From: Actinoallomurus bryophytorum
GTDB lineage: Bacteria > Actinomycetota > Actinomycetes > Streptosporangiales > Streptosporangiaceae
Assembly (NCBI RefSeq): GCF_006716425.1
Contig: NZ_VFOZ01000001.1
Span: 7,241,237-7,273,236 of the forward strand
Direction: 5' to 3'
Length of the DNA: 32,000 bases
Below, piece after piece: positions 2,499 through 32,000 of the stretch (the first letter of the stretch is position 1; every line of letters begins with the position of its first letter). The translations under genes were made by a program, and so were the position numbers. Below the pieces are notes generated by a model that was not told where the DNA came from, made no database searches, and saw only the letters and a list, made by a program, of their open reading frames with translations.

Positions 2499-2522
2499 CG
2501 TATATTCGTCTACGAATATACG
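2499..2522. promoter_or_regulatory. Perfect inverted repeat, candidate PadR autoregulatory operator
   Basis: CGTATATTCG (2499-2508), spacer TCTA, CGAATATACG (2513-2522). The repeat lies about 23 nt upstream of the PadR start in an AT-rich patch (2461-2525). Confidence 0.6.
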
Positions 2523-2544
2523 CACCAGAGTGAGAGGTGGCGGC

Positions 2545-3228
2545 ATGGCCAGGCAGCGGAGGGTGACGACCCCGCTGGCGCTGTCCGTGCTGGCCACGCT
2601 CAGCGAAGCGCCGATGCACCCGTACGAGATCGCCCGGCTCCTCCGGCATCGCGGCAAGGACCAGTCGATCAAGATCCGGTACGGCTCCCTCTACACCGTC
2701 GTGCAGAGTCTGGAGAGTCAGGGCTTCGTGACGGCCGAGGGCACCGCGCGGGCCGGGCGTCGTCCCGAGCGGACCGTCTACCGGCTCACCGACGACGGGC
2801 GCGAGGAGCTCGAGGACCGGCTCCGTGAGCTGGTGAGCGAGCCCGCCAAGGAATACCCCCTCTTCGAGGCGGCGCTGTCGCTCGTCGGCGTGCTCGCGCC
2901 CGACGAGGTGATCGGCCTGCTCACCGAGCGGCTGCGGCTGCTGGAGGTCGACCTCGCCCGTACGCGGGCGGCCCTGCACGAGCTGACCGCCGAGCAGCGC
3001 CTGCCCAGGCTGTTCCTCATCGAGTCCGAGTACGGCCTGGCCATGAAGCAGGCCGAGACCGACTGGGTACGCGGTCTGATCCGCGAGCTGACCGACGGCA
3101 CTCTCGAGGGCGTCGACTACTGGCGTGCCTGGCACAAGACCGGGGAGTTCCCCCAGGAGTGGACCGAGCGCGACTGGGCCAAGGCCGACCGCGCCATGCG
3201 CGCCGAAAGCGAGGTCGAGGACAAATAG
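2545..3228 (+). CDS. PadR family transcriptional regulator
   Basis: Winged-helix PadR signature LSVLATLSEAPMHPYEIARLL...GSLYTVVQSLESQGFV...RTVYRLTDDGREEL, with a long C-terminal helical domain. ATG 2545 is preferred over GTG 2530 because GAGAGGTGG lies upstream. Confidence 0.85.
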   Translation: MARQRRVTTPLALSVLATLSEAPMHPYEIARLLRHRGKDQSIKIRYGSLYTVVQSLESQGFVTAEGTARAGRRPERTVYRLTDDGREELEDRLRELVSEPAKEYPLFEAALSLVGVLAPDEVIGLLTERLRLLEVDLARTRAALHELTAEQRLPRLFLIESEYGLAMKQAETDWVRGLIRELTDGTLEGVDYWRAWHKTGEFPQEWTERDWAKADRAMRAESEVEDK

Positions 3229-3391
3229 AGATACCCCGGCTTGGTGCACCCGTCCGCCACAGACCTGGAGCACCGCGCCGGGGCCGCTACACCATCGAAC
3301 CGATGCCGAGGTGCGGCGCGTCCCACCCTACTTGGGGGCGCCCTCCTCCGGTCGGTCGGTGAAACGACCACCGATAGGAGCTGGCACGACC

Positions 3392-7617: not shown

Positions 7618-7880
7618 GTGAAGTACACCGGCACGACGAGCAACCGTCGGCCTGAACGGCGGCCGGGCCTGCTTCAGCGCCGGCCCGACCACGACCACAC
7701 TGCCCGACGACCGGGTCCGTGCCCGGCTGCACGAACGGGACCTCCGCCACCCGGGACCTCGGCGGATGCTCGTCCACGCGATGAGTCCCACCGGCAACGC
7801 GGACGGCCCGGCGACCCCGTACATGGTGAGGATCGCCGCCGCGACCTTCGATCCCGGGCCGGTGGAGGGATGGCCCGCGC

Positions 7881-8993
7881 TCACAGGCCGAAAACGCCGC
7901 GGAGCTCGGTGAAGAGCGCCTCGTAACCGTCGCGGCCGAAGGCGGCAGTGGCCGCGGAGAGCGCGTCGAGGGCGGCCCGCAGCGGCTCGTCCCTCACGGC
8001 GGCGAACAGCGCCGGAACGGCCATCGCCTGCTGTGAGGCGTTGCGCGTGCCGGTCCCGATCGAGGTCACGGTCGTCCGCCGTACGCGAGGGTCGGCGAAG
8101 AGCGTCTCCCACACCCGGGCCCGGTCCTCGAACGGCGGCGGGAGGTCTCGTCCCTGGTCGAGTGCGTCCAGCGCGGGCGTGACCCAGTCGAGGTCGGTGA
8201 GCCCGGCCTCGGCGTACGCACGGTGCGCGGCCCAGCGTGCGATGGCACGCTGCGTCACGGGATCGGCCGCGGCGATCGCCTCGGCCAGGTCACGGTCGAG
8301 CCTCGCCACCGCGCCGGCGTTACCCGTCACTCCGCTTAGCCGCTCGCTCGGCGGCCGTCCGCCCCAGGTGCGCAGTTCACGGGCACGGCGCCGCTCCTCC
8401 TCCTGGCGCTTCTGCTCCCGCCGCCGCTGGAGTTCGGCCTCGGCAAGCTCCTGGGGTGTGGGAGGCGGCGGCGGTGGAGGAATATCGCGGGCGACTCCGT
8501 GCCAGTACGCCGCGGACTCGCTGGTCTGCCGTACGACGCGATCCGGCTCCGGCGCCGCGGGCCAGAACTGCAGGAGGTAACGGTCGATCTCCGGCTCGTC
8601 CTCCCTCCGGGTGTCCGCCGAGTGCGCCGCGTCCATCCCGAGGGCGCAGTAGCGCACCCGGTACGAGGTCCGCGCGAGGTCGAGGTCCCAGGTCGCCTCG
8701 TCACCCCACTCGACGAGCGCGACCCGCGCCGACGCGGGCGTGAAGGACGCCTCCACGACCTCCTCCCAGACCTCGTCGAGCGGCGGCGGGCCCTCGTGCA
8801 GCTCGACCGTGAAACCGATGCTCCCCGTGTGCAGACCGGTGGTGAGGAACAGCGCGCCGGGGGACGCCGCCCCGCAGAGGCCGTTCGACTGGCCGGCGAA
8901 GCATGCCTTCAGCTCGGGGTAGTCCTCGCCGCTCTCGACGTAGATCTGCCGGTAGTGAACGTGCACCTGACCGCTGACGAACGTACGCACCAT
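7881..8993 (-). CDS. Hypothetical two-domain protein (N-terminal beta-rich domain, poly-Pro plus charged helix, C-terminal helical domain)
   Basis: ATG 8993 (MVRTFVSGQVHVHY...) is preceded by GGGAGGA. GC3 is high. A central PPPPPPPTPQELAEAELQRRREQKRQEEERRRARE linker is visible. I recognised no family. Confidence 0.6.
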   Translation of the reverse strand: MVRTFVSGQVHVHYRQIYVESGEDYPELKACFAGQSNGLCGAASPGALFLTTGLHTGSIGFTVELHEGPPPLDEVWEEVVEASFTPASARVALVEWGDEATWDLDLARTSYRVRYCALGMDAAHSADTRREDEPEIDRYLLQFWPAAPEPDRVVRQTSESAAYWHGVARDIPPPPPPPTPQELAEAELQRRREQKRQEEERRRARELRTWGGRPPSERLSGVTGNAGAVARLDRDLAEAIAAADPVTQRAIARWAAHRAYAEAGLTDLDWVTPALDALDQGRDLPPPFEDRARVWETLFADPRVRRTTVTSIGTGTRNASQQAMAVPALFAAVRDEPLRAALDALSAATAAFGRDGYEALFTELRGVFGL

Positions 8994-9227
8994 GCCGTCC
9001 TCCCGCCCGCAGAGCCTGCCACCGGGCACCGACAGATCGGCGCGCGGCCTGACGCGCCATCCGCGGCGGTGCCGCGCTGGCGTACCGCGTCGCTCTTTCG
9101 ACGGCCTCGGTTTCGCGAAGGGCAGGAGATCCGGCCAGAACGGCGCTGCGGGCCCAGTGATCACACGCAGGTCTTGCGATGATGCGAATCCGGAGGTCTT
9201 CGCGCTAACCGGTTCTCGAGGAGCGTC

Positions 9228-9821
9228 ATGTGGCACGACATGCTGTCCGTCCAGATCCCCATCGTGGAGAAGGTGCTGCGGACCGTCGCGGTCTACGTGC
9301 TCATCGTGCTGCTGTTCCGCGTGGCGGGAAAACGGGGCCTGGCGAACCTCAACACCTTCGACTTCGTGGTGATCTTCCTGCTGTCCAACGTGGTGCAGAA
9401 CGCGATCATCGGTAGCGACAACAGCCTGCTCGGCGGGGTCATCGGCGCCGTGACCCTCGTCGCCATCAACGCGCTGCTGAACAGATGGCTGGCCGTCGAC
9501 GAACGCGCCGTACGCCTGCTGGAAGGGACACCGACCACCGTCATCGACGACGGTCTGCTGCTCACCCGGCCGCTCAAACGGCTCGGGCTACGGCCGGGGG
9601 AGGTCGAGCACGCGATCCGTGTCCAGAACGGCGAGACCACGGGCGACGTCGCCCTGGGGCGGCTGGATCCCGACGGCCAGTTCATCATCGTGCTCAAGTC
9701 GTCCGCACAGAACGCCACCCGCGGTGACGTCGCCGAGCTCGAGACCCGCCTGGCCGCCATCGAGGAGCTGCTGAGCACGCTGGCCGGCCGTCGGCCCGGC
9801 GCCCCCCGATCACCCGAGTGA
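9228..9821 (+). CDS. DUF421 (YetF-like) membrane protein
   Basis: The N-terminal transmembrane segments, RVAGKRGLANLNTFDFVVIFLLSNVVQNAI and the soluble C-terminal domain fit DUF421. GAGGAG lies 4 nt before the ATG. Confidence 0.75.
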   Translation: MWHDMLSVQIPIVEKVLRTVAVYVLIVLLFRVAGKRGLANLNTFDFVVIFLLSNVVQNAIIGSDNSLLGGVIGAVTLVAINALLNRWLAVDERAVRLLEGTPTTVIDDGLLLTRPLKRLGLRPGEVEHAIRVQNGETTGDVALGRLDPDGQFIIVLKSSAQNATRGDVAELETRLAAIEELLSTLAGRRPGAPRSPE

Positions 9822-9840
9822 ACGAACGGCGACAGGACTT

Positions 9841-10293
9841 TCACGCACGGTCGGTGTCTTCCGGCCAGGTCCATCGCGGGACCTCACGTAGGGGATGGAG
9901 GTCGGCATCGGTTTCGGCGTGGGAGTTCTGCCAGGCGACCTGCGAGCCGAACTCGACGTGGGAGCGGACCGCTTCGCGGAACGGCTCGTCGTCGGGCAGT
10001 CCGGCCTCGTCGAGCGCCTCCAGGTACAGCGCCACGAAACGCCTTCGCTGCTCCTCGGTGATCTCCATGTGCCGGTGCGCCTGGATGATGTGGCCGAAGC
10101 CCAGCTCCCGGGTGAACCGGTCGGGCCCGCCGAAGGACTCCGCCGTGAACCAGGTCAGGTGTTCGACATGGTGGGGCCGGCGCTCGGGGAACAACGGCTG
10201 GAGAACCGGGTCGGCGAGGACCTTCGTGTAGAAGAGCTCTTCCAGCCGGTGCAGTCCGTCATCACCCCCGGCGTGGGTGTAGAGGCTCGGCAT
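9841..10293 (-). CDS. Truncated (2-on-2) hemoglobin family protein
   Basis: GGDDGLHRLEELFYTKVLADPVLQPLFP...FGGPDRFT...HRHMEITEEQRRRFVALYLEALDEAG matches the trHb pattern. ATG 10293 follows GGAGG. Confidence 0.7.
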   Translation of the reverse strand: MPSLYTHAGGDDGLHRLEELFYTKVLADPVLQPLFPERRPHHVEHLTWFTAESFGGPDRFTRELGFGHIIQAHRHMEITEEQRRRFVALYLEALDEAGLPDDEPFREAVRSHVEFGSQVAWQNSHAETDADLHPLREVPRWTWPEDTDRA

Positions 10294-10418
10294 TGCAGGA
10301 CCTCCGTGGCCGCGTGACGACCCGGCCGATGACATTGAACCGTGCACAGTAACTCACGGCACGGGCCGGCGGCGCTACGGCCGTGGGGAAACGGCCGCCT
10401 CGATACACTTGCGGGATC

Positions 10419-11057
10419 ATGGACACCACCTCGGCGGAGCAGGGCCGCGCCCGGGGCCGCAACCCGCGTGGCCAGGGTGAACGCCTGCGTGAGGACATCA
10501 TCGCCGCGGCTCTCCGGCTGCTGGAGGAGCTCGCCGACGACCAGGCGCTGTCGCTGCGCGCCGTGGCGCGCGACATCGGCATCGCCGCGACCTCGGTCTA
10601 CATCCACTTCGCCGACCGGGACGCCCTCGTGCTCGCCGCCCTGAAGCGCTGTCACGACGATCTCATGCACGACGTCGACCGGGCCGAGGCCACCTCCGCC
10701 GACCCGGTGGCCCAGCTGCGCGCCCGTACTCTCCTGCACGGCGAGTGGGCCCACCGGCACCCCGGCCTGTACAAGGTGCTGCACGAGAGCACGCTCAACC
10801 AGCGGACCGGTATGCCCTTCAAGAGTGAGCTCGGTGACCGCACCACCGCGATGATCCAGCGGTGCATGGACGCAGGCCTCGCCCCGGCCGGCGACGCCGC
10901 GGCCGTCTCGCTGGACCTGCGAGCGGCCGTGCACGGCAGCGTCTCCATGCGTGTCAACCAGCCTGACCTGTCCTGGCCGCCGCTGGACGAACAGGTCGAC
11001 CGGTTCCTCACCAAACTGGTCGGTGTCACGCTCCCGCCGCCGGCGCTCAGCCCTTGA
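10419..11057 (+). CDS. TetR/AcrR family transcriptional regulator
   Basis: HTH REDIIAAALRLLEELADDQALSLRAVARDIGIAATSVYIHFADRD. The gene is divergent from the hemoglobin gene, and its 3' end overlaps the convergent permease gene by 11 bp. The start is uncertain (ATG 10419 or GTG 10383). Confidence 0.8.
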   Translation: MDTTSAEQGRARGRNPRGQGERLREDIIAAALRLLEELADDQALSLRAVARDIGIAATSVYIHFADRDALVLAALKRCHDDLMHDVDRAEATSADPVAQLRARTLLHGEWAHRHPGLYKVLHESTLNQRTGMPFKSELGDRTTAMIQRCMDAGLAPAGDAAAVSLDLRAAVHGSVSMRVNQPDLSWPPLDEQVDRFLTKLVGVTLPPPALSP

Positions 11058-11862
11058 CCGCGCCGGAGAGCATCCCCCGGATGAACTGCCGCTGGAAGAA
11101 CACATAGAGGCCGACGACCGGCACCGAGATCAGCAGCGCCGCAGCGGCGAGCAAATTGATCTTCACCAGGAAGCGGCCGGAGAACGCGCCGAGCCCGAGT
11201 GTCAGCGGCTGGTGCGCGGGGTCGGACACGAGGATCAGGGAGAGGAAGTAGTCGTTCCAGGTCCACATGAAGCTCAGCAGGATCAGCGTCGTGATCGCCG
11301 GCCGGGAGATCGGCAGATAGATGCGCCACAGCCTCGTCCAGGAGTTCGCGCCGTCCATCGCGGCCGACTCGCCGATGCCGGCCGGGACGGTACGGAAGGC
11401 CGCGCGCATCCAGAAGGTGCCGAAGCCCACCGACATGCCGACGTGGGCGAGGATGATGCCCTGGTAGGTGTCGGTGAGGTGGAACGACAGGAAGTCGTAG
11501 TACAGCGGGACGACGATCGACTCCATGGGGATCATGATCCCGAGCAGGATGAGCGGGAACAGCGCCTTCTCGCCCACCACCCCGAGCACGCCGAAGGCGT
11601 AGCCGCTCATCACCGCGAGCACCGTGGAGACGACCACGACGCAGCCCGTGATGATCAGGCTCGACTTGAGATAGTGGGTGAAGCCCGCCTGGGTCCAGGC
11701 GGTGACGAAGTTCGACCACTGGGCGTGGCCGAGGTCGAGCGTGCCCGTGGTGTTGGGGCTGATCGCGACCCCGAAGATCCACACGATGGGGAACAGCACG
11801 CTGACGGCGAGAAGCGTCAGCAGCGTGTAGTTGAAGATCTTTTCTCGCCTGGTGATCGTCAT
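11047..11862 (-). CDS. Carbohydrate ABC transporter permease (MalG/BPD type)
   Basis: 271 aa with six hydrophobic segments and an EAA-like loop GESAAMDGANSWTRLWRIYLPISRPA. An ATGA overlap links it to the upstream permease fragment. Confidence 0.85.
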   Translation of the reverse strand: MTITRREKIFNYTLLTLLAVSVLFPIVWIFGVAISPNTTGTLDLGHAQWSNFVTAWTQAGFTHYLKSSLIITGCVVVVSTVLAVMSGYAFGVLGVVGEKALFPLILLGIMIPMESIVVPLYYDFLSFHLTDTYQGIILAHVGMSVGFGTFWMRAAFRTVPAGIGESAAMDGANSWTRLWRIYLPISRPAITTLILLSFMWTWNDYFLSLILVSDPAHQPLTLGLGAFSGRFLVKINLLAAAALLISVPVVGLYVFFQRQFIRGMLSGAVKG

Positions 11863-12197
11863 TTGTCATCCTCGGAGAGCCTGACCACGACCAGCGCGAC
11901 GATCAGGGAGACGATCGCGAGCACGACCCCGATGGCGGCCGCGGCGCCGACGTCGGGGTTGGCGAAGGCGCGCTGGTAGAGCACGATCGTGGGGGTGATG
12001 GTGGAGGTGCCCGGCCCGCCGCGGGTGGTGAGCCAGACGATGTCGAACACCCGGATCGCGCCCAGCACCGTAAGGGTCACCACGACGGCGACCTGGCCGC
12101 GCAGCCCCGGCAGGGTGACGGCGAAGAACTCACGAAGCGGCCCGGCGCCGTCCACGCGGGCCGCGTCGTACAGCTCCGACGGGATGGACTGCCCCGG
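11859..12197 (-). pseudogene. 5'-truncated carbohydrate ABC permease (MalF type), C-terminal ~110 aa only
   Basis: The reading frame gives ...PGQSIPSELYDAARVDGAGPLREFFAVTLPGLR... (EAA loop onward). Family members are about 300 aa. Recognisable sequence stops at about 12197, where the opposite-strand acylase fragment begins. Confidence 0.7.
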
Positions 12198-12199
12198 CC

Positions 12200-13765
12200 A
12201 TGCCCTGGCTCTGGTACCAGGAGGGACTGCACTGCCGCGTCGGCGCGAGCGGTGCGCTCACCGCGGCCTGCCCGTACGACGTCAGCGGCTTCACCTTCTC
12301 CGGCGTGCCGGGCGTCGTGATCGGGCACAACCAGCGGATCGCCTGGGGCTTCACCAACCTCGGGCCGGACGTGAGCGACCTGTACCTGGAGCGCGTCAGC
12401 GGCGGCACCTATGAGTACAAGGGAAAGCGGGAACCGCTCCAGACCCGGACCGAGCGGATCGCGGTCGCCGGCGCCAAGCCGGTGACCATCACCGTACGGG
12501 CGACACGGCACGGCCCGCTGCTGTCCGACGCGATGGACGAGGCGCGCAGGGCCGGCAACGGGCTCGCCGTCGCGCTCCGTTGGACCGCGCTGGACCCCGG
12601 CCGAACCGCCGACGCGATCGGGCTGTTGAACGGCGCGCGGAACTGGCCGGAGTTCCGCACCGCCGCGGCGTCCTTCGAGGTGCCCGCGCAGAACCTCGTC
12701 TACGCCGACGTGGACGGGAACATCGGCTACCAGGCGCCCGGCCGGATACCGATACGTACGAAGGGGGACGGGACGTCGCCGGCCGAGGGCTGGACCGGGA
12801 AGCTGGAGTGGAAGGGTTTCATCCCGTTCGCCGACCTGCCCTCCGCGTACGACCCGAAGCAGGGCTACATCGTCACCGCCAACAACGCCGCCACCGGGCC
12901 GGGCTACCCGAACCTGCTGACCAAGGACTGGGCGTACGGGTACCGCGCGGCGCGCATCGAGGAGCTGATCCGGCAGACACCCCGGATGGACGTCGCGGGG
13001 ATGGGCCGGATCCAGCTGGATGACCGCAACGGGTTCGCGCCGACGCTGGTGCCGCACCTGCTGCGGGTGGGATCCGGCCCGGCGGCGGGGCTGCTGCGCG
13101 GCTGGGACTTCACCCAGGGTGCGGACTCCGCGCCGGCGGCGTACTACGACGCGGTCTACCGGCACGTGCTGCTGCGGACGTTCGACGACGAGCTGCCCGA
13201 CGGCGCCCGCCCCGATGGCGGCGACCGATGGTTCGAGGTGTTGCGGAACCTGCTGGACCGGCCGGACGACCCCTGGTGGGACGACGTGGGCACGGCCGGG
13301 GTCAAGGAGACCCGCGACGACATCCTGCGGCTCGCGATGAAGGATGCCGACGGTGAACTGCGCCACCGGCTGGGCGACGACCCGGCGAAGTGGAAGTGGG
13401 GCGACCTGCACCGGCTCGAGTTGAGGAACGAGACGTTCGGGGACTCGGGCATCGGGCCGATCGAGTGGCTGTTCAACCGCGGCCCGCTCGAACTGGCCGG
13501 GGGCGACTCGCTGGTGGACGCGACCGGCTCGGACGTCCAGACCGGGTACGGGGTCGACTGGGTGCCCTCGATGCGCATGATCGTCGATCTCGCCGACACG
13601 GACCGGTCGCGGTGGGTGAACCTCACCGGCGCCTCGGGCCACGCCTTCGATGACCACTACTGGGACCAGGCGAAACTCTGGGCGCGTGGCGAGACCACGC
13701 CGATGCGCTCGGCGCCGGAGACGATCCGGCGGGAGGCACGCGAGACGCTCACGCTGACCCCCTGA
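12200..13765 (+). pseudogene. 5'-truncated penicillin amidase / acylase (Ntn hydrolase) family gene
   Basis: 521 aa starting MPWLWYQEGLH...GVPGVVIGHNQRIAWGFTNLGPDVSDLYLE...HGPLL...GNIGYQAPG...VTANN are conserved mid and C-terminal blocks of PF01804-type acylases. Full-length members are about 800 aa or more. The alpha chain and the beta-chain N-terminal Ser nucleophile region are absent. Confidence 0.7.
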
Positions 13766-20721: not shown

Positions 20722-23700
20722 TTGGGTTCTCCGAAGCTCGTCGCAGCGGTGTCGCGGTCGGGAATTTTCGCTGCCGCGAAGGGTCTGTTCCGGAGCCCTG
20801 CCGTTCGGGTGGCCGCCCTCGCCTCTCGTGTGGGAAACCTGGTCGGCAGGGGTGCGCTTCGTACCGGTCTCAGCGGTCTGCGCAGATCACCGAGTTATCT
20901 GTCCCGGTCCATGACCAAGGACCCGATCGATGTTGCCAGTGGCGAGGTGGTGCTGCGCCAGGTCGACGTGGAGCTGGCCGGCGTTCTGCCGTTGTCGCTG
21001 GAGCGTACGCACGTGTCGTCCTATCGTGCCGGTCGCCTGTTCGGCACCTCGTGGGCGTCGACCCTGGATCAACGGCTGGAGTTCGACGCGGAGGGCGTGT
21101 GTTTCGCCGCGGCGGACGGAATGGTGCTCGCCTATCCGCCGGTGCGTCTGCCGGAGACCCCTGTCCTGCCGTTCGCGGGCCCGCAGTGGGCACTCGCGGT
21201 CGACCAGGACGGTGGCCATTCCGTCACGGACTCACAGGCCGGCCGCACGCTGCATTTCGCTTCCGCGGGCGGCGGGCCGGGCGTCCTGCCTCTTTCGGCG
21301 ATCAGCGACCGCAACGGTAACCGGATCGACCTTCTTCATGACGACAGTGGGACCCTCGTCGAGGTCCGGCATTCGGGCGGGTATCGAATCGGTGTCGAGA
21401 CCGATGCGACCCAGCGTGTGACGGCTTTGCGGCTGATCTCCGACGGCGAGGGCGGCGGGCGGGAACTGGTCCGTTACCGCTATGACGACAACGGGCGGCT
21501 GGCCGGGGTGCTGAACTCATCGGGCAGGCCGCTGCGATTCGAGTACGACCCGCACGACCGGCTGACCGCCTGGATCGACCGCAACGGCCATTGGTACCGG
21601 TACGAGTACGACGAGCTGGGCCGCGGTGTCCGCGGTCACGGGTCGGATGGCTTCTTGGACGTGGCTCTCGCCTTCGAGGACGGGCTCACCGTCGTGACCG
21701 ACGCGCTCGGGCACCGGACGGACTATCACCTGAACGAGATGGGCCAGGTGGTCCGCCAGGTCGACCCCCTGGGACGTGCGACGACCTCGGAGTGGGATCG
21801 CCACGACCGGCTGCTGTCCCGCACCGATCCGCTCGGGCGTAAGACGCGGTATTCCTATGACGAGGCGGGCGACGTCACCGCCATCACGAGGCCCGACGGC
21901 CGGCAGATCACGGCCGCGTACAACGCGCTCGGCCGGCCGGTCCGGACGGCCGACGCCGCCGGCCGGGTCTGGCGGCAGGCCTATGACGACCGCGGCAATG
22001 TCATCGCGGTGACCGATCCGGCCGGAGTCACCGTGCGGTACGAGTACGACGAGCGGGGTGCTCTGTCAGCGATCGTCGACCCGCTCGGGGCGGTGACCCG
22101 GTTCGTCAACGACGGCGCGGGCCTGCCGGTCACCGTCGTGGATCCGCTGGAGGGCGTCCACGGCTGCGTCCGCGACCGGTTCGGCCGTATATCGGAGATC
22201 GTGGATCCGCTTGGCGGGATCACTCGCATCGGCTGGACGCTGGAGGGCAGACCTGCCTCACAGGTGCTGCCGGATGGGGCCACCGAACGCTGGTCATACG
22301 ACGCCGAGGGAAACCTCGTCGAATACACCGACACCATGGGCCTGGTCAGCAGGACGGAATACGCGGCTTTCGATGTGCCCGCCGTCCGGATCGCGCCGGA
22401 CGGCACACGGCTGGAGTTCGCCTATGACGCCGAGCTGCGGTTGACGGCGGTCACCAATCCGCAGGAACTCGTGTGGCGCTATACCTATGACGCGGCGGGT
22501 GACCTGGTCCAGGAGACGGACTTCAACGGCCGGGCCATCCGCTATGCCTACGATGCGGCGGGACAACTCGCGGAGCGTGCTGTCGGCGCCGGTCAAACGA
22601 CCCGTTACTCGCACGACCTGCTCGGGAACGTCGTCAGGCAGGTTTCCGGTGACGGCCTCGCGACCTTCGCCTTCGACGTCACGGGCCGCCTGGTCCGAGC
22701 GGTGAACGCGGACGCCGACGTGCGGTTCGACTACGACGAGCTCGGCAGGGTGGTGGCCGAGGAGTGCAACGGCCGCAGGCTCACCGTCGGTTATGACGCC
22801 CTGGGGCGCCGCGTACGGCGCCGAACCCCCTCCGGCGCCGAGGCCGATTGGGACTATGACATCGCAGGGCGTCCGGCCGTACTCCACACCGCGGGCCAGA
22901 CGATTCGGTTCGAACACGACCTGGCCGGCCGGCAGGTCCGCCGTCATGTCGGGGACGCCGCGACCCTGGACCAGGAGTGGGACCTGCGTGACCGGCTGAG
23001 CCGCCAGACGTTGCGGGGCGTCCCCTCGGCCACCGGCGATCCTGCGTACGCGCCGCACCGCGCCGACTCCGCCGAGCCGGGGAGCCCGCTTCAGCGGCGC
23101 GCGTACTCCTACCGGCCCGACGGCGGTGTCGCCCGGATCATCGACCAGAGCCTGGGAGACCGAACCGTCGAGCTCGACGCGGCCGGGAGGGTGACCGGAG
23201 TCCATGCGGCGGGCTGGGACGAACGCTACGTCTATGACCCGGCGGGGAATCCGGTCCACGCCACCTGGCCGGAGACCGCGACCGGCGGGTCCTGGGACGC
23301 CGGCGCCGCCGGCGGGCGCGACTACACGGGGACCCTGGTCCGCTCGGCGGGCGATGTCCGCTACGAGTACGACGGCCGAGGCCGTGTCGTAGTCCGGCAG
23401 CAGAGACGTCTCTCGTCCAAGCCCAGGACCTGGCGATACGCCTGGAATGACGACGATCGCCTCGTCGCCGTCACCACCCCCGGCGGACAGCGGTGGCGCT
23501 ATCTGTACGACGCTCTGGGACGCCGCGTCGCCAAACAACGGCTACGGCCGGACGGTCACTCCGTCGCCGAACAGACCGACTTCACCTGGGATGACGTCGT
23601 ACTGGCAGAGCAGACGCATTCCGTCATGGAGGACGCCGGCGCCGTGACGCGCACGACCGCGTGGGACTACGAGCCCGGCGGCTTCCGGCCGATCGCCCAG

Positions 23701-24462
23701 ACCGAACGCGTCCTGAGCGGCGAGAGCCCCCAGGACGCGATCGACGAGAGGTTCTACGGCATCGTCACCGACCTGACCGGATCTCCCTCCGAGATGGTCG
23801 ACTCAACCGGCGACCTGGTCTGGCAGAGCGTCTCCAGCGCATGGGGGATCGGGGCGCCGCGAGGATCGGCGGCCTGCCCGCTGAGGTTCCCCGGCCAGTA
23901 CCACGACGCCGAAACCGGGCTTCACTACAACTTCCAGCGCTTCTACGACCCTTACACCGCGCGATACCAGAGCCCGGACCCGCTCGGCCTGTCGCCACAG
24001 CCTGACCCTCACGCCTACGTCCATGACCCGATGAACTGGGCCGACCCGCTCGGCCTGGCGCCATATGCTCTGTTCGTCAGCAGAATGGCCTTTGTGCTCC
24101 GTCACCTGAACGAGCCATCCCGGCTCAAAGCCATCAAGCTGGCCGTGCATGACAACCGCGAGATGTTCAACAGGCTCGGTGGAAAGGCCCCCCAGTCCAA
24201 CGCGACCATCCGTGACCTGCTGAAGCTCAAGGAGGGGAACCCTTCTTGGAAAGCGAGAGCGGCGAGCGCGAGTAGCCGATCGGACGCCGAACTGTTGCAG
24301 TCGGTCTTCCAGCCCATGGACGGTCAGTACATGGCTGTTCATCCCCTCTATCCGGGCATGATATTGCAAGGCAACCACAGGCGCAGGGAACTCCTCAACC
24401 GCGTAGATGATTTGAATTCAGGCATCTCACTGGAGACGCCCATCTTCATCAACAACTTCTAG
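20722..24462 (+). CDS. RHS/YD-repeat polymorphic toxin with a variable C-terminal module
   Basis: 1246 aa. An N-terminal DPIDVASGEVVL...LERTHVSSY block (DUF6531-like) is followed by about 20 YD repeats (YRYDDNGRL, YEYDELGR, YSYDEAGDV, YTYDAAGDL ...). The RHS core ends FPGQYHDAETGLHYNFQRFYDPYTARYQSPDPLGL...DPMNWADPLGL (24025-24057), followed by a 134-aa tail. The start is uncertain (TTG 20722 or ATG 20911). Confidence 0.9.
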   Translation: MGSPKLVAAVSRSGIFAAAKGLFRSPAVRVAALASRVGNLVGRGALRTGLSGLRRSPSYLSRSMTKDPIDVASGEVVLRQVDVELAGVLPLSLERTHVSSYRAGRLFGTSWASTLDQRLEFDAEGVCFAAADGMVLAYPPVRLPETPVLPFAGPQWALAVDQDGGHSVTDSQAGRTLHFASAGGGPGVLPLSAISDRNGNRIDLLHDDSGTLVEVRHSGGYRIGVETDATQRVTALRLISDGEGGGRELVRYRYDDNGRLAGVLNSSGRPLRFEYDPHDRLTAWIDRNGHWYRYEYDELGRGVRGHGSDGFLDVALAFEDGLTVVTDALGHRTDYHLNEMGQVVRQVDPLGRATTSEWDRHDRLLSRTDPLGRKTRYSYDEAGDVTAITRPDGRQITAAYNALGRPVRTADAAGRVWRQAYDDRGNVIAVTDPAGVTVRYEYDERGALSAIVDPLGAVTRFVNDGAGLPVTVVDPLEGVHGCVRDRFGRISEIVDPLGGITRIGWTLEGRPASQVLPDGATERWSYDAEGNLVEYTDTMGLVSRTEYAAFDVPAVRIAPDGTRLEFAYDAELRLTAVTNPQELVWRYTYDAAGDLVQETDFNGRAIRYAYDAAGQLAERAVGAGQTTRYSHDLLGNVVRQVSGDGLATFAFDVTGRLVRAVNADADVRFDYDELGRVVAEECNGRRLTVGYDALGRRVRRRTPSGAEADWDYDIAGRPAVLHTAGQTIRFEHDLAGRQVRRHVGDAATLDQEWDLRDRLSRQTLRGVPSATGDPAYAPHRADSAEPGSPLQRRAYSYRPDGGVARIIDQSLGDRTVELDAAGRVTGVHAAGWDERYVYDPAGNPVHATWPETATGGSWDAGAAGGRDYTGTLVRSAGDVRYEYDGRGRVVVRQQRRLSSKPRTWRYAWNDDDRLVAVTTPGGQRWRYLYDALGRRVAKQRLRPDGHSVAEQTDFTWDDVVLAEQTHSVMEDAGAVTRTTAWDYEPGGFRPIAQTERVLSGESPQDAIDERFYGIVTDLTGSPSEMVDSTGDLVWQSVSSAWGIGAPRGSAACPLRFPGQYHDAETGLHYNFQRFYDPYTARYQSPDPLGLSPQPDPHAYVHDPMNWADPLGLAPYALFVSRMAFVLRHLNEPSRLKAIKLAVHDNREMFNRLGGKAPQSNATIRDLLKLKEGNPSWKARAASASSRSDAELLQSVFQPMDGQYMAVHPLYPGMILQGNHRRRELLNRVDDLNSGISLETPIFINNF

Positions 24463-24471
24463 GATCTTTGA

Positions 24472-24885
24472 ATGCGATTCACCAAGGGCGATCGTCACGG
24501 CAGAAGCTGGCCGACCGTCGATCTCTACACGACAGCGGGACGAGGAGACATCAAGACGATGTCTCCTCCCGCCCTCGAACGCCTTATGACGGTGGCACGC
24601 GAAAAGGAGTGGAGCGCCGTCGGCCGCCCGGCATGGTGGGGCGCGCACAAAGACCGCGTCCGATCCCTGTGGATGGTCGTCTTCGGCCCGGAAGGGACCA
24701 CGCTGCTTCGGTGCATCGTGATCGCCGCTCTCGACGACGGCTCCGGGGGGAGTTTCACCCTCGACGTTCACCCCGCCGACTTCGACCGCCTGCCGGACGC
24801 GACACCGGAAGAACTGACCATGCTGGCCCACGCGTATCTCGCGCGGTTCCCGCCGCTCGAACTCGATCTCGACCAGCGGGAATGA
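24472..24885 (+). CDS. Candidate cognate immunity protein of the RHS C-terminal toxin
   Basis: 137-aa ORF beginning 9 nt after the RHS stop, on the same strand, with its 5' part in the same lower-GC patch. I recognised no family. The call rests on the canonical toxin-immunity gene order. Confidence 0.55.
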   Translation: MRFTKGDRHGRSWPTVDLYTTAGRGDIKTMSPPALERLMTVAREKEWSAVGRPAWWGAHKDRVRSLWMVVFGPEGTTLLRCIVIAALDDGSGGSFTLDVHPADFDRLPDATPEELTMLAHAYLARFPPLELDLDQRE

Positions 24886-27156: not shown

Positions 27157-27816
27157 ATGACAGACCAGGAAGCGCTCAGTACCTCCTACCGCGACGTCGT
27201 GGCCGCCCTGCGCAACATCGGCGCCGAGGAGGAGTGGCTGCCGACCGGATGCGCGGGCTGGACGGTGCGTGACCTGCTCTTCCACCTGCGCGGCGACGCG
27301 CAACGGGCGCTGGTGGCGCTCGCCAGCCCGGCCGGTACGGCGCCCGACACCGACGCCGTGTCCTACTGGAGGCGCTGGCGGCCGGGTACGGACGCCGCGC
27401 GGGCGAGCCTGCGGATGGTACGGATCAGCGCGAGCGTCTATCCGGGTCTGCGCCCGATCCTGGACAGCTACGCCGAGACCGCCGAGGCGGTCGTGTACGC
27501 CGCGGTGCACACCGATCCCGAGCTTCCGGTACGTACCCAGGGCCGTGTGCTGCGCGCCGGCGACCTCGTACGGACCCTGGTGGTCGAGGCGGCGGTCCAC
27601 CATCTCGACCTCGTCGTCGCGCTGGACCGGCCCCTGCCGTCGGCCGGGCCGCTGCGGGTGGTCAGGGAGACGCTCGACGGGCTGCTCGGTGAGCCGTTGC
27701 CGCTGTCCTGGGACGACGTGACCTACGCCCGCACCGGAACCGGCCGCGCCGGCGTGTCCGAGCAGGACCGGATCGCCCTGGGACCGCTGGCCGATCGCCT
27801 CCCGCTGTTCGGCTGA
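27157..27816 (+). CDS. DinB / maleylpyruvate isomerase N-terminal domain (mycothiol-dependent type) protein
   Basis: The CAGWTVRDLLFHL motif and a four-helix DinB-like N-terminal pattern are present. The protein is 219 aa. Confidence 0.65.
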   Translation: MTDQEALSTSYRDVVAALRNIGAEEEWLPTGCAGWTVRDLLFHLRGDAQRALVALASPAGTAPDTDAVSYWRRWRPGTDAARASLRMVRISASVYPGLRPILDSYAETAEAVVYAAVHTDPELPVRTQGRVLRAGDLVRTLVVEAAVHHLDLVVALDRPLPSAGPLRVVRETLDGLLGEPLPLSWDDVTYARTGTGRAGVSEQDRIALGPLADRLPLFG

Positions 27817-27819: not shown

Positions 27820-29661
27820 TCACGACCGCACGTCGTCACGGTAACCGGACGCCTGGAGCTCGAAGAGCCCGGCGTAGATGCCGCCTGCGGCAAGGAGGTC
27901 GTCGTGGCCGCCCTGTTCGGCCACGACGCCGCCGGACAGCACCACGATCGCCTCGGCGTCCCGTACCGTGCTGAGCCGATGCGAGATCAGCAGGCTCGTA
28001 CGGCCGGCGCGGTGCTCGCGGAGCCGTCGGTGCACCTCGGATTCGGCCTCGGCGTCGAGACCGGCGCTCGGCTCGTCGAGGATGAGCAGGTCGGTGTCGT
28101 CCCGCAGCAGGGCGCGGGCGATGGCGACCCGCTGCCACTGGCCACCGGACAGGATCACTCCGCTGCCGGGATCGTCGTACTCCGTGGACTCGAAGGCCCG
28201 CGACAACATCGTGTCGTAACCGCGCGGCAGCGCCTCCAGGGCCGGGTCGCACCCGGCGCGGCGGGCGGCGGCCACGATGCGCTCACGGTCGGCCATCGCG
28301 TCCAGGTTCCCCACGCCGATGTTGTCGGCGGCGCTGAGGTCGTAGGCCATGTAGTCCTGGAAGACGGTGCCGATGCGGCGGCGCAGGACGTCGACGGGCA
28401 GCTCCCGGATGTCGACGCCGTCCCACAGCACGGCGCCGCGGGTGGGGTCGTAGAAGCGGCAGAGCAGCTTCACCAGGGTGCTCTTGCCGGCGCCGTTCGG
28501 TCCGACCAGCGCGGTCGCGTGGCCGGCCGGAATGGTCATCGTGACACCGCGCAGGATCCACGGGAGGTCGTCGCCGTAGCGGAACCAGACGTCGCGCAGT
28601 TCGATGCCGGTCCGCAGCGGGCGCACCGGCCGGCCGGCTCCGCCGTCCGGCGGGCCGGGCAGGTCCGGGCCGGCGCCGACGACGTGCCGGTAGTGCCCGA
28701 ACAGGATCATCGCCTCGTGCATCCGCCCGGTGCTGCTGATCACGATGGTCAGGCCGGTCTGCACCCCGGCGACCGCCGCGATGAAGACCGAGACGTCCCC
28801 GACGGTGAGCCGGCCGGCCCGCGCCGCGTTCACCGCCCACACCAGCCCGGCGCCCGCGACGAGCGCGCCGAGGAACGCGTACGTGCCCTGAACGGCGAGC
28901 TCACGGCGGCCCATCCGGCTGCGCTGGGCGTTGATGTGCGCCAGTTCGGTGAGCATGCGCGTGCCGAAGAGCCCGCCCAGCCCGTACAGGCGCACCTCCT
29001 TGGCCGCGCTCATGCTGGTCAGCAGCTGCGCGTAGAAGAACTCGCGGCGGGTGGAGGTACCGAGCCGCCAGATCGTGCGGGCCCGGTAGCGGCTCAGCCG
29101 GATCTCCCCGCGCAGTGCGACGGCCGCGGCCAACGTCACGGGCAGGAGCATCCACGGGCTGAGAACGGCCAGCGTGCCGACGAACCCGGCGAGCATGAGC
29201 GCGCCCTGGGCGCCGCCGAGCCCGCCGCTGATGACCTCCGACGGGCCGGACGGCCCGGTGTCGGCGGCCAGCGAGAGACGGTCGTGGAACCTCGGGTCCT
29301 CGAAGCGGCGCAGGCCCGGGATCCTGCCGATCGCGGCGTAGAGGCGTTCACGTGCGGTCAGGTCGATCGCGCGTTTCATCTCCGCCTCCGCGAACTGCAC
29401 GGCCTGGGGCAGGACGGCGGCGGCCACACCGGTCAGGGCCAGCAGGAGCACCGGGAGCAGCACGGGCCGGCCGGCCGTGGCGGTCAGGCGGTCGAGCACG
29501 GTCTTGGTCAGCCACGCCGCCGTCACCGGCACGACACTGGCCACGACGGCGAGGGCGACCCGGAGCAGCAACCGTCCGGGGCCGGACGCCCAGGCCATCG
29601 CCAGCGAGGCGCCGACCGAGGCCAGGGCGGAGTGGGTCGTGTCGTCGTCCGGACCGGTCAT
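27820..29661 (-). CDS. Fused ABC exporter (transmembrane domain plus ATPase), last gene of the ATP-grasp operon
   Basis: Six N-terminal hydrophobic segments are followed by Walker A GPNGAGKST, signature LSGGQWQR and Walker B LLILDEPSAGLD. ATG 29661 overlaps the stop of the upstream redoxin gene (ATGA). Confidence 0.85.
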   Translation of the reverse strand: MTGPDDDTTHSALASVGASLAMAWASGPGRLLLRVALAVVASVVPVTAAWLTKTVLDRLTATAGRPVLLPVLLLALTGVAAAVLPQAVQFAEAEMKRAIDLTARERLYAAIGRIPGLRRFEDPRFHDRLSLAADTGPSGPSEVISGGLGGAQGALMLAGFVGTLAVLSPWMLLPVTLAAAVALRGEIRLSRYRARTIWRLGTSTRREFFYAQLLTSMSAAKEVRLYGLGGLFGTRMLTELAHINAQRSRMGRRELAVQGTYAFLGALVAGAGLVWAVNAARAGRLTVGDVSVFIAAVAGVQTGLTIVISSTGRMHEAMILFGHYRHVVGAGPDLPGPPDGGAGRPVRPLRTGIELRDVWFRYGDDLPWILRGVTMTIPAGHATALVGPNGAGKSTLVKLLCRFYDPTRGAVLWDGVDIRELPVDVLRRRIGTVFQDYMAYDLSAADNIGVGNLDAMADRERIVAAARRAGCDPALEALPRGYDTMLSRAFESTEYDDPGSGVILSGGQWQRVAIARALLRDDTDLLILDEPSAGLDAEAESEVHRRLREHRAGRTSLLISHRLSTVRDAEAIVVLSGGVVAEQGGHDDLLAAGGIYAGLFELQASGYRDDVRS

Positions 29662-30188
29662 ACCGGCGCGGTATCCGGAATGCGCTCGGCGGTCGCGTAG
29701 CTCGCCACCATCGTGTCGCCGGACAGCAGCGCGAACGCCGGCAGGGCGCCGACACCGAAGGCCGTGACGAGGGGACCGCCCTCCTCCGTCTCGGTCAGGA
29801 CCCGGGCCACCGGTCTGAGCTGGTCGCACAGCTCACCGGCCCCCGGCGACGAGCCGAGGACGATGGCCAGGACCTGGTGACGGCCGCCCGCGGCGGCCTC
29901 GGCACGGCTGATGAAGTCCGGGAGGCCGGCCTCGCAGGACGGGCATCCGGGCGCCAGGAACCCGATCAGCGTGGATCCGTTCAGGTCCGCCCTCGACACC
30001 GGTTCGCCGTCCACGGCCGTCACCGTGAAGTCGCCCACCCGCTCGCCCGGCGGCACGCCGAGCGGCGCGGGCTCGGCCCGGCCAGGGGCCTTCTCCGCCA
30101 GCATCCGGGAATGGTCGTTCAGGCGGCGGATGACGCCGAGCATCAGGGCGATGTTGATCAGGCACAGGACACCGACGACCGCCGTCAT
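29658..30188 (-). CDS. Membrane-anchored thioredoxin-fold thiol:disulfide oxidoreductase (TlpA/MauD-like)
   Basis: The N-terminal transmembrane helix MTAVVGVLCLINIALMLGVI is followed by FLAPGCPSCEA (CPSC active site) and a thioredoxin-fold length. An ATGA overlap links it to the upstream MauE-like gene. Confidence 0.75.
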   Translation of the reverse strand: MTAVVGVLCLINIALMLGVIRRLNDHSRMLAEKAPGRAEPAPLGVPPGERVGDFTVTAVDGEPVSRADLNGSTLIGFLAPGCPSCEAGLPDFISRAEAAAGGRHQVLAIVLGSSPGAGELCDQLRPVARVLTETEEGGPLVTAFGVGALPAFALLSGDTMVASYATAERIPDTAPV

Positions 30189-30766
30189 GGGGTCTCCTCA
30201 CGGGCCCGTGGCCGCGGGCCCGTGCTCACGGGCCGGGCCAGCGTGATGATCTCTTCCAGGTTGATCAGCAGCAGGGCGCCCGCGACGCCCGCGGTGGCCG
30301 CGAGGACCCACGCGGAGCCGAACGGCGCGGGTCCGGCCGAGGTGGTGGTCATGACGAGGCCGCCGGCCGCGGCCACGAGCAGGGTCAGGTTGCGGGCGAG
30401 GTGTGCCGTACCGGGCGGGTGGCGGCCGGCGCCGAAGCAGCGGCACGGCACCCTGACCCGCCGGCGGATCATCGACTGGACGCTCGCGGTGAGGACGATG
30501 AGCAGCACCGTCGCCACCATGAACCCGGCCGGGACGAGCGGGGGGACCACCATGGCCACCGCCGTCGCGGCCTCGGCGGCCACGGCCACGACCGCGACCG
30601 CAGGCGCCAGACGCGAGGGGACTCCAGCACTGGCCGACAGCCAGTGCTGGAAGTCCGCGTACGCGGCCCGGCCGGTGACCTTGGCGGCCGTCGAGGTGCC
30701 GAACGCCACCACGATGACCGCCTGACAGCCCACCGTAAGTGAGGACGTCACATCGGACACGCGCAC
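30185..30766 (-). CDS. MauE / DoxX-like integral membrane protein
   Basis: 193 aa with four or five hydrophobic helices and the RVPCRCFG motif typical of the MauE family (PF07291), as I recall it. The GTG start is preceded by GAGGAG. Confidence 0.65.
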   Translation of the reverse strand: MRVSDVTSSLTVGCQAVIVVAFGTSTAAKVTGRAAYADFQHWLSASAGVPSRLAPAVAVVAVAAEAATAVAMVVPPLVPAGFMVATVLLIVLTASVQSMIRRRVRVPCRCFGAGRHPPGTAHLARNLTLLVAAAGGLVMTTTSAGPAPFGSAWVLAATAGVAGALLLINLEEIITLARPVSTGPRPRAREETP

Positions 30767-30781
30767 TCCTCGTCCGGACCG

Positions 30782-31807
30782 TCAGTACCCGACCTGGGTC
30801 ACCTCGCCTCGCTCGAACGGGCCGCCCCGCATGAGGAGCTCAGCCATGCACTCGCCCATCTCCAGGCCGAGGTCGAAGTGCATCCACATGAACTGACCCG
30901 CCGGGTTGACCTCCAGGAAGATGTACTCCCCGTCCGGCGTGACGATGAAGTCCACCGCGCCGTAGACCGCGCCGAGCTCGGCGAACAACGCCTGGGTCTT
31001 CTTGATGATCTCGTCGGGCAGTGGCTGGTAGTCGCCGTAGGGCAGGGAGGCCTGCTCGCCCGCCTGACCGCGCCAGTCCACCTTCGTCGTGTCCATGTCC
31101 TGGGATTTGATCGTCACCGGGAAGTAGGTGTTCCCGATCACGGTGAGCCGCACCTCGTAGGCCTTGTCGACGTACTCCTGGAACATGCACATCGTGTGGC
31201 CGACGCGGTCGAGGTGCTCGCGGATCTCGTCCCCGACCACCGTCGTCAGCAACCCACCGGGGAACGCGCCCGGATAGTGGATCACTCCGCCGGTGAACGA
31301 CTTGTAGACGATGGGCCGGTCGGCACTGTCGAGCAGCGCACTGACCTCCTGCGGATCGTTGGTCAGCAACGTCCTCGGCACGCGGAACCCGAGCCGCTTC
31401 GCCAGCTCCAGCTGGTACGGCTTCAGCTCCCCGATCGCGTCGATGTCCGGCCGGTTGACCCACAGGCAGTTGGTCGCGCGCAGGATGCCGCCGATGCCCT
31501 GCATCGCCTCTTTGCGTGCGTAGATCCTCTCTGGTTCGCCCATCTCGGGGCCGAAGTCGAACCCGGTCGGGCGGCGGTACCAAACGCCCGCGAGCCGATC
31601 GAGATCGACCTCACGGTCGCGGTCGCGCAACAACCGCCGCCTGTCGTCGAAGTCGGAGGTCGTGAAGCTCAACCGTCGCGGAAAGTAGCTCAGGTCGACG
31701 CGTACGACCTCGGCGCCCCGCTCCGAGAGAGTCCGGATGACGGGGTCGACGGTCGGATCGAATTCCTGGGTCAGGATGAGGACGCAGGGCGTCGGCGACG
31801 AGGTCAT
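30782..31807 (-). CDS. MvdC/MvdD-type ATP-grasp peptide ligase (RiPP maturase-like)
   Basis: 341 aa. The pre-ATP-grasp N-terminus CVLILTQEFDPTVDPVIRTLSERGAEVVRVD is followed by KPYQLELAKRLGFRVPRTLLTND, IVYKS, CMFQEYVDKAYEVRLTVIG and AVDFIVTPDGEYIFLEVNPAGQF. This layout fits microviridin-type ATP-grasp ligases rather than RimK or GshB. Confidence 0.75.
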   Translation of the reverse strand: MTSSPTPCVLILTQEFDPTVDPVIRTLSERGAEVVRVDLSYFPRRLSFTTSDFDDRRRLLRDRDREVDLDRLAGVWYRRPTGFDFGPEMGEPERIYARKEAMQGIGGILRATNCLWVNRPDIDAIGELKPYQLELAKRLGFRVPRTLLTNDPQEVSALLDSADRPIVYKSFTGGVIHYPGAFPGGLLTTVVGDEIREHLDRVGHTMCMFQEYVDKAYEVRLTVIGNTYFPVTIKSQDMDTTKVDWRGQAGEQASLPYGDYQPLPDEIIKKTQALFAELGAVYGAVDFIVTPDGEYIFLEVNPAGQFMWMHFDLGLEMGECMAELLMRGGPFERGEVTQVGY

Positions 31808-31810
31808 CGA

Positions 31811-32000
31811 TCAGGCGCACACGTCGTCTCTGCAGGTGTCACTGCCCGCATAGCAACTGGTCGAGGTGTTCGTGGAGATGCCGGCGGTGGTGGTGCCGGG
31901 CGGGAACGTCCAGGTCTGCGTGTCCTGGTCGTAGTGGCCGCCCATGGGCTCGGACACCTGGCCGTCCCACTCGGCGTACAGGTAGGCGAGCGGCTGCTCG
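31811..32000 (-). CDS. Partial small ORF: candidate ATP-grasp-modified RiPP precursor (N-terminus outside the window)
   Basis: My hand translation of the minus strand gives ...EQPLAYLYAEWDGQVSEPMGGHYDQDTQTWTFPPGTTTAGISTNTSTSCYAGSDTCRDDVCA, then TGA at 31813-31811. That stop is separated by 3 nt from the ATP-grasp ATG (31807). GC3 is high. The ORF is absent from the supplied track because no start lies inside the window. Confidence 0.6.
   Translation of the reverse strand, partial: EQPLAYLYAEWDGQVSEPMGGHYDQDTQTWTFPPGTTTAGISTNTSTSCYAGSDTCRDDVCA

Follow-up and report, generated by a model that had tools for sequence, protein, structure and literature searches.

A predicted graspetide operon of Actinoallomurus bryophytorum with a MauE–redoxin–ABC cassette that accompanies an additional cysteine pair in the precursor core

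Among the graspetides, ribosomally synthesised peptides with post-translational modifications (RiPPs) closed into rings by ATP-grasp ligases, the group most reminiscent of the locus described here in its accessory genes has so far been captured in supplementary statistics: for the 253 biosynthetic gene clusters (BGCs) of graspetide group 9, Carter et al. 2026 give in their Table S4 MsbA-like ATP-binding cassette (ABC) proteins in 68.8% and a further 22.1%, the protease family PF01972 in 55.7%, AhpC/TSA proteins in 39.9% and MauE in 29.6% (PMC13097080). The MauE family, PF07291, occurs in that supplement under group 9 only, the main text mentions only the proteinase, and Table S3 includes no characterised member of the group (PMC13097080). 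The same authors regard secondary tailoring of graspetides as understudied, the recorded cases being acetylation, Asp methylation with aspartimide formation and the conversion of Asp to aminomalonate (PMC13097080), and graspetide synthetases are known to be able to form non-native thioesters (PMC13097080; PMC12291112). In the open-access literature we found no paper that connects graspetides to MauE or to enzymes dedicated to disulfides, an absence which is no proof, and Makarova et al. 2022 make no mention of MauE, DoxX, thioredoxin or disulfides. Here we present an operon at the end of a 32,000-nucleotide stretch of the Actinoallomurus bryophytorum genome (the window; contig NZ_VFOZ01000001.1, positions 7,241,237 to 7,273,236), in which a precursor gene and an ATP-grasp ligase gene are followed by genes for a MauE-like membrane protein, a thioredoxin-fold protein of the redoxin type and an ABC exporter.

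The locus is, with high confidence, a graspetide BGC, and across its relatives the presence of the MauE–redoxin pair goes hand in hand with two additional cysteines in the precursor core. This set of genes occurs widely and has been recorded in statistics, yet it has been neither discussed nor characterised. A first-pass annotation of the window knew of no characterised product from such an operon, and named as a ground for refutation that the combination be already common and characterised. It is indeed common (30 of 46 related loci, together with the distant loci L055 and L068) and tabulated in Table S4, but there is no characterised group 9 product. What the present analysis adds is the correlation between core cysteines and cassette, a separate ancestry of the cassette, and the recognition of sister clades that naturally possess or lack the pair.

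The ATP-grasp synthetase and its candidate substrates

In hidden Markov model (HMM) searches the ATP-grasp protein of the operon finds its best match in TIGR04187 ("ATP-grasp ribosomal peptide maturase") with 285 bits (E = 5e-85), followed by MvdD (TIGR04184) with 188 bits and MvdC (TIGR04185) with 165 bits, as against 43 bits for RimK. It also carries the leader-binding MvdD pre-ATP-grasp domain PF21068 (E = 2e-13). Its relatives of known structure are the graspetide synthetases CdnC (7mgv), MdnC (5ig9) and MdnB (5ig8), recovered with E = 1e-34 to 4e-37; the full set, which includes 9bou and AMdnB, spans E = 4e-37 to 4e-31, and RimK reaches merely 1e-4. As the matches to RiPP maturases lie far above that to RimK, the protein can be placed with the RiPP macrocyclases, and the concern that it might instead group with RimK or GshB falls away. 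The score remains below the cut-off of TIGR04187 and no methyltransferase is found among the conserved neighbours, which sets the enzyme apart from the graspimiditide subfamily (TIGR04187/group 13). Homologues at least 60% identical to it form about 90 clusters and come from Thermomonosporaceae, Micromonosporaceae and Pseudonocardiaceae.

The window ends within the small open reading frame (ORF) upstream of the synthetase, which left room for the possibility that it was the C-terminus of a large protein. On the full contig it is a complete gene of 93 codons, preA, preceded by an AGGAGGA ribosome-binding site and annotated as a hypothetical protein (WP_141960973.1). Its leader displays a PLAYLY motif of the P-h-h-x-h type and a GHYD..Q.W motif, and its core ends in ...GISTNTSTSCYAGSDTCRDDVCA. 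Across 14 aligned members P34, Y37, G52, D55, Q59, W61, G71, T76, T78, D85, D89, D90 and C92 are invariant, and the core follows the pattern [S/T]74-x-T76-x-T78 … D85-x3-D89-D90-x-C92, with Ser or Thr at position 74, in the clades both with and without the MauE–redoxin pair. Three invariant hydroxyl donors thus precede three invariant Asp residues. Sequence features alone therefore identify a graspetide-type locus: a ligase of the MvdC/MvdD type with PF21068 lies next to a precursor that has both a leader motif and a core of donors and acceptors. The penultimate Cys (C92, codon at 31814..31816), part of a DDxC-x C-terminus, is retained in all preA homologues including those of the clade without MauE and redoxin, which indicates a role that does not depend on the cassette; it might form a native thioester, mediate dimerisation or bind a metal.

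Directly upstream, and overlapping the start of preA, lies a second small gene, preB, encoding a hypothetical protein of 122 residues (WP_141960974.1). It has the motifs PLAYLYE and AGHYD..LVW.F in common with preA, and a profile–profile comparison (HHalign) of the two families gives a probability of 95.5% (E = 1.4e-8) confined to the leader region. The preB protein ends in …SGEVTGIxG[IL]T[EQ]P and has no core rich in Ser, Thr, Asp or Cys. It is encoded in 45 of the 46 related loci, irrespective of the MauE–redoxin pair, with a conserved N-terminus of its own (FLRFDxPEL…VVRAVPA) and the tail W.FSGEVTGIxGITEP. Its C-terminal region lacks an invariant acid, the candidate Glu positions being Gln in several members, and this argues mildly against a classical core. 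The preB protein may serve the synthetase either as substrate or as a partner acting in trans. Neither preA nor preB matches any NCBIfam or Pfam model, even at E ≤ 1–10; identities as a TIGR04186 or Strep_pep-type precursor were thus rejected, and the first of these, which had been proposed as a search model, did not recognise either protein.

Upstream of preB (L001 9326..9358; L001 denotes the source contig, a 64.9-kb A. bryophytorum record encoding the identical ATP-grasp protein, and a window coordinate equals 41808 minus the L001 coordinate) there are direct repeats of TGAGAGCGNNC with 11-bp spacing, found at the same position in L002 and L004–L018 in one to three exact copies per locus. 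They stand directly before a −10-like hexamer, which itself lies 6–7 nt from the preB GTG, a position that suggests a leaderless preB mRNA. Among 79 loci this pattern is confined to that one position, where 16 loci have it. A gene for a Streptomyces antibiotic regulatory protein (SARP) with a BTAD domain is situated directly upstream in 20 loci, and the repeats are likely SARP boxes.

The MauE–redoxin–ABC cassette and the core cysteines

We surveyed the distribution of the operon using one genome per species and an alignment of the ATP-grasp proteins, with locus content determined by tblastn and ORF extraction. This yielded 78 loci, 46 of which (including L001) encode an enzyme at least 63% identical to that of A. 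bryophytorum. Nearly all of these 46 have the succession preB–preA–ATP-grasp, and in 30 it continues with MauE, redoxin and ABC in the order seen in the window. A neighbourhood survey of this kind had been recommended by the first-pass annotation, and the recurrence of one gene order in 30 species-level genomes indicates that the arrangement is not due to chance. The loci with the pair come from at least ten genera, among them Actinomadura, Spirillospora, Thermomonospora, Actinoplanes, Plantactinospora, Catellatospora, Micromonospora, Actinophytocola and Pseudonocardia, and from an Acidimicrobiales metagenome-assembled genome (MAG). The other 16 loci lack MauE and redoxin: 14 of them have an ABC protein that is about 35% identical to that of the window, L020 has one of the cassette type (57%), and L046 gives no ABC match.

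The two sets of loci differ in the precursor core. Three Cys residues occur in the last 26 residues of preA in every one of the 30 loci with the pair (for example TSTSCYAGSDTCRDDVCA and TRTSGSNCGDCVTDDACA), whereas, of the 15 loci without the pair whose preA could be scored, 14 have a single one, the invariant penultimate Cys (for example GYSSYTKTGIGSTDRVLDDLCA). Viewed from the side of the peptide, the cassette is present in 30 of the 31 loci that have the extra Cys pair. The association has a nominal Fisher p = 9e-11, a value computed over loci that are phylogenetically related to each other. In a neighbour-joining tree of the ATP-grasp proteins the pair-less loci form one clade plus the separately placed L024, giving two independent transitions that agree with the correlation. 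The two extra cysteines bracket D85 with spacings from C-x2-C to C-x6-C, L031 being the one variant. Clusters with and without the pair also coexist within single genomes, namely those of Actinomadura vinacea (L010, L029), Thermomonospora echinospora (L002, L024) and Actinomadura kijaniata (L005, L039, L046); the two A. vinacea clusters are on the same contig, arranged tail to tail within about 9 kb.

The proteins of the cassette have the hallmarks of a redox pair with its exporter. The MauE protein matches PF07291 with E = 7e-21 and 75.3 bits, well over the gathering cut-off of 27, and in 32 of 32 sequences it retains a C-x-C-F-G motif (C108/C110) together with K29, E65, R125 and N126 (numbering of the 193-residue form). 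An AlphaFold2 model (predicted local distance difference test, pLDDT, 91) comprises five long helices, and the loop that connects helices 3 and 4 holds the CxC; a Foldseek comparison of this model with PDB folds gave no significant match. Across 32 homologues the counts of Lys plus Arg average 4.4 and 6.3 in MauE loops 1 and 3, the latter being the CxC loop, whereas loops 2 and 4 and the N-terminus have about 0.1. The redoxin matches the AhpC-TSA and Redoxin models of Pfam near their gathering scores and MauD (TIGR02661) weakly, with 22 bits against a cut-off of 188.6; its relatives in the PDB are proteins of the TlpA, ResA, Etrx, DsbE and DsbF types. All 32 sequences keep the CxxC of its C82-P-S-C85 motif and the cis-Pro P150, which marks it as a thioredoxin-fold oxidoreductase, and in the actinobacterial clade the active site reads C-[PQ]-x-C. 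A single anchor helix, flanked by an uncharged N-terminal segment and followed by a conserved RR, would attach it to the membrane. The exporter is MsbA-like, with an ABC_tran domain; its match to NHLM_micro_ABC1 (TIGR03796) begins at model position 156, past the peptidase domain, and Pfam detects no Peptidase_C39 in it, so it does not belong to the peptidase-containing ABC transporters. The first-pass identities of all five genes are thereby confirmed by HMM and PDB searches.

Cassettes of MauE, redoxin and ABC, with more distant MauE homologues, also exist apart from any ATP-grasp gene, in Streptomyces cocklensis (L080), Actinoallomurus sp. NPDC050550 (L081) and Streptosporangium soli (L082). 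In these loci a Cys-rich small ORF (7, 9 and 9 Cys; e.g. MMRLIDRIIEKAAPKATASACSGTYFCNAAGHPGYWYRFCCPQTGCEWSKVRSSC) accompanies MauE, redoxin, ABC and an S26 signal peptidase. The genes are contiguous in L081, their order and orientation vary in L080 and L082, and SARP/BTAD regulators lie near two of the three (L080, L082). Over its full length the exporter of the window shares 53–55% identity with the ABC proteins of these stand-alone cassettes, as against 38% in a partial alignment with that of the sister graspetide clade; redoxin and MauE share 34–37% and 35–37% identity, respectively, with their stand-alone counterparts. The greater closeness of the exporter to the stand-alone cassettes than to the sister graspetide clade argues that MauE, redoxin and ABC were inherited together as a unit. 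To judge from these identities, the operon looks like a fusion in which a graspetide module has been joined to a redox and export cassette of Cys-rich peptides, and as such it offers a clean example of the modular fusion of two RiPP-type systems. Among its candidate RiPPs, decRiPPter has flagged MauE/MauD families whose precursors contain 8 or more Cys (PMC7794033), and the cassettes of L080–L082 probably correspond to these families.

Two further loci distant from the actinobacterial clade, L055 (an Anaerolineae MAG, 193..3714) and L068 (a Pseudoduganella MAG, 7725..12634), have the order precursor, ATP-grasp, PF01972 ClpP-like protease, MauE, redoxin and transporter. Both precursors contain Cys and a related leader motif, LFAF..AE; that of L055 has 8 Cys and also shows G.YD..Q.W. 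No conserved protease was detected among the 46 actinobacterial loci, PF01972 being restricted to L055 and L068.

Possible maturation pathways

We consider it reasonably probable, on the strength of the comparative pattern, that the cassette acts on the core Cys pair of a graspetide. In such a pathway the ATP-grasp enzyme would bind the shared leader in the cytoplasm and phosphorylate the three Asp side chains, after which up to three omega-ester rings between Thr/Ser and Asp would close, probably as a hairpin (stem-loop) similar to the products of SAV_5884/graspimiditide-type enzymes. The MauE (CxC) and thioredoxin-fold (CxxC) proteins would then carry out thiol–disulfide chemistry on the two extra Cys residues flanking D85, the simplest outcome being one disulfide across the loop; this role is proposed because the presence of the cassette tracks the extra Cys pair and because the redox-active cysteines are invariant. 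The thiol chemistry could be coupled, physically or functionally, to the cassette's own ABC exporter, and leader removal would fall to a protease whose gene lies elsewhere. The invariant penultimate Cys would serve a separate, cassette-independent role.

Several observations tell against this proposal. The 285 bits of the synthetase fall short of the trusted cut-off of 350 of TIGR04187. The Cys correlation rests on few independent evolutionary events, and three is an odd number of cysteines, such that a single disulfide leaves one thiol unexplained. Catelliglobosispora koreensis (L020, 7375..10768), with two tandem preA copies, has cores with 3–4 Cys and the 57%-identical cassette-type ABC, and within 17 kb there is no MauE–redoxin pair. 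By the positive-inside rule the CxC loop of MauE and the thioredoxin domain would both be cytoplasmic, unlike the usual extracytoplasmic site of oxidation. The ester count, the topology and the disulfide are all inferred from sequence. Finally, in lasso peptide clusters that contain a similar pair, deletion of sviF still permits synthesis of oxidised sviceucin, the peptide being retained in the mycelium, and deletions of mslE and mslF only lower the yield (PMC9266682); these analogous pairs are therefore dispensable for the disulfides, with effects on export and yield.

The lasso knock-outs would accord with a graspetide cluster in which MauE and redoxin are accessories of the ABC protein in export, quality control or immunity, while any disulfide arises spontaneously or through housekeeping oxidoreductases after export. 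The association of the pair with its own ABC as a single travelling cassette points the same way, as does the retention of Cys-rich cores without the pair in L020. We nevertheless judge such a role rather unlikely, for the pair follows the extra core Cys rather than export as such: in the sister clade, which likewise relies on an ABC protein for export, both the pair and the extra Cys are missing. In addition, the redox-active Cys are invariant in both proteins. Still less probable, in our estimate, is that the core Cys are kept reduced or used otherwise, for instance as a Cys3 metal site as in the Zn-binding cysimiditides or as thioester nucleophiles, with the CxxC protein serving as a reductase or isomerase in the manner of TlpA and ResA. 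These reductant-type proteins are indeed among its closest solved relatives, and the odd number of Cys, their acidic neighbours and the above-mentioned capacity of the synthetases for non-native thioesters would all suit such a use; Cys-rich RiPPs with bound Zn are also known (bioRxiv 2024.10.02.616296). Yet the penultimate Cys is kept where the cassette is missing and it is the Cys pair with which the cassette correlates, and the variable spacing from C-x2-C to C-x6-C is typical of a loop disulfide. The redoxin matches also include the mycobacterial DsbE and DsbF, which are oxidases.

A last alternative is that the genes are neighbours by chance, or that the ligase is a housekeeping enzyme of the RimK/GshB type. 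In its favour, public annotation has the enzyme as a "glutathione synthase/RimK-type ligase" and labels the small ORFs "hypothetical". Both versions are effectively refuted by the HMM and PDB results given above, by the overlapping stop and start codons and by the conservation of the gene order in 30 genomes across families.

Should the proposed action of the cassette on the Cys pair hold, a conserved redox and export cassette tied to two core cysteines would represent a new tailoring logic for graspetides, giving a bicyclic or tetracyclic scaffold of esters plus disulfide. It would likewise supply a small and genetically simple substrate for the long-enigmatic MauE/DoxX–thioredoxin pair of the mau and lasso systems, for which the sister clades with and without the pair offer natural, built-in controls. 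A more far-reaching version, which we put forward only tentatively and hold to be doubtful, is that the product constitutes a new graspetide subclass, a three-ester hairpin with an enzyme-made disulfide introduced by a cytoplasm-facing MauE/MauD-type module that hands the peptide directly to the exporter; no earlier example of a thiol-redox tailoring system dedicated to graspetides would then precede it. It is further conceivable that the penultimate Cys acts as a fourth nucleophile in the native peptide and is joined to an Asp in a thioester (thiolactone), and that the leader-only preB may act in trans on the synthetase rather than as its substrate.

Genomic setting and relation to known systems

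The window DNA is high in GC and actinobacterial in character. Between 27820 and 32000 it contains five co-directional minus-strand genes (Table 1) separated by 3–21 nt or joined by ATGA overlaps, and the ORF coordinates bear out the tight spacing described earlier. An alternative GTG start of the MauE gene at 30766 would yield 193 residues and narrow its gap to the ATP-grasp gene to 15 nt, as against 21 nt with the 191-residue start. No terminator-like or sigma-70-like sites were found within the five-gene unit. For the exporter a 669-residue ORF proposed by the ORF finder was rejected in favour of the 613-residue called gene. A convergent gene ends 3 nt from the last stop of the operon; this gene (MDMPI_N/DinB, 27157..27816) and the TetR and SDR genes downstream were rejected as cluster members, being missing from all other loci.

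Table 1. Features of the predicted graspetide operon in window coordinates, with source-contig (L001) coordinates where these were given
Feature	Window position	Strand	L001 position	Remarks
preB, precursor-like paralogue	32062..32430		9378..9746	overlaps the preA start
preA, precursor, complete	31811..32092	-	9716..9997	93 codons
preA, 3' part inside the window	31811..32000	-		62 codons plus stop; frame open up to the window end
graspetide synthetase (predicted), MvdC/MvdD-type ATP-grasp, 341 aa	30782..31807	-		begins 3 nt past the preA stop
MauE/DoxX-family membrane protein, 191 aa	30185..30760	-		start preceded by GAGGAG
thioredoxin-fold protein (redoxin), 176 aa, CPSC, membrane-anchored	29658..30188	-		ATGA overlap with the MauE stop
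ABC exporter, fused permease/ATPase, 613 aa	27820..29661	-		ATGA overlap with the redoxin stop

On the full contig the order is SARP … preB–preA–ATP-grasp–MauE–redoxin–ABC, with a TetR gene, an SDR gene and an 808-residue SARP-type regulator (Trans_reg_C, BTAD and NB-ARC domains) upstream of preB. The expectation that the cluster continues past position 32000 with regulators, further precursors and a protease is thus correct as regards a second precursor-like paralogue and TetR and SARP regulators; no protease gene is present near the operon on L001. Elsewhere in the window, at 20722..24885, a 1246-residue RHS/YD-repeat protein (DUF6531, TEN_YD-shell, RHS_repeat) is followed after 10 nt by a 137-residue ORF, and the two could be a toxin/immunity pair with no relation to the RiPP operon. 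Beyond the window, at L001 1..5138, genes for DUF2397, DUF2398 and an SbcC_Walker_B ATPase form an operon, which we take to resemble the Wadjet-type (JetABC) anti-plasmid system.

Comparison with described systems separates the two halves of the operon. Its redox half recalls the MauE/MauD proteins of mau clusters in PF07291, the C-x-C and a membrane-anchored CxxC partner; the two settings differ in that mauA, mauB and mauG are absent within 10 kb on either side here, and in that the beta subunit of methylamine dehydrogenase is the substrate in the one case and a small RiPP would be in the other. In the lasso clusters of sviceucin, siamycin I/MS-271, aborycin and humidimycin, a similar pair (SviE, DoxX, with SviF, a thioredoxin CXXC protein; MslE with MslF) likewise stands beside ABC genes and is associated with extra Cys. 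These belong to the lasso class, and SviE is annotated as DoxX rather than MauE. The stand-alone MauE–redoxin–ABC–S26 cassettes contain three homologous genes, with the redoxin showing an N-terminal anchor followed by RR as here, and are distinguished by an unrelated leader, the S26 gene and the lack of an ATP-grasp gene.

On the graspetide side, the microviridin and chryseoviridin synthetases of group 1 (MdnC, MdnB, CdnC) are homologous to the present enzyme over the full length, including the leader-binding domain, and the leader motif PLAYLY has its counterpart in PFFARFL. Unlike group 1, the operon has one ligase in place of two, no conserved Lys donor in the core, and a different core motif and set of accessory genes. 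With the SAV_5884/graspimiditide-type systems of group 13 (fuscimiditide ThfB, amycolimiditide, albusimiditide) it shares the actinobacterial origin, the single ATP-grasp enzyme and the placement of Thr donors N-terminal to Asp acceptors, a layout compatible with a stem-loop of omega-esters; in contrast to the graspimiditides it has no O-methyltransferase of the PIMT type at the locus, and its precursor and cassette contribute the Cys pair, the penultimate Cys and the MauE–redoxin–ABC genes. With respect to group 9 (Lee et al. 2020; Ramesh et al. 2021; Carter et al. 2026), the PF01972 protease of that profile is absent in all 46 actinobacterial loci, and the co-occurrence statistics fit the architecture of L055 and L068 better than that of the actinobacterial clade. 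Group 9 is the only group of Table S4 with PF07291, and it combines MauE with AhpC/TSA and MsbA-like ABC proteins as does the operon of A. bryophytorum.

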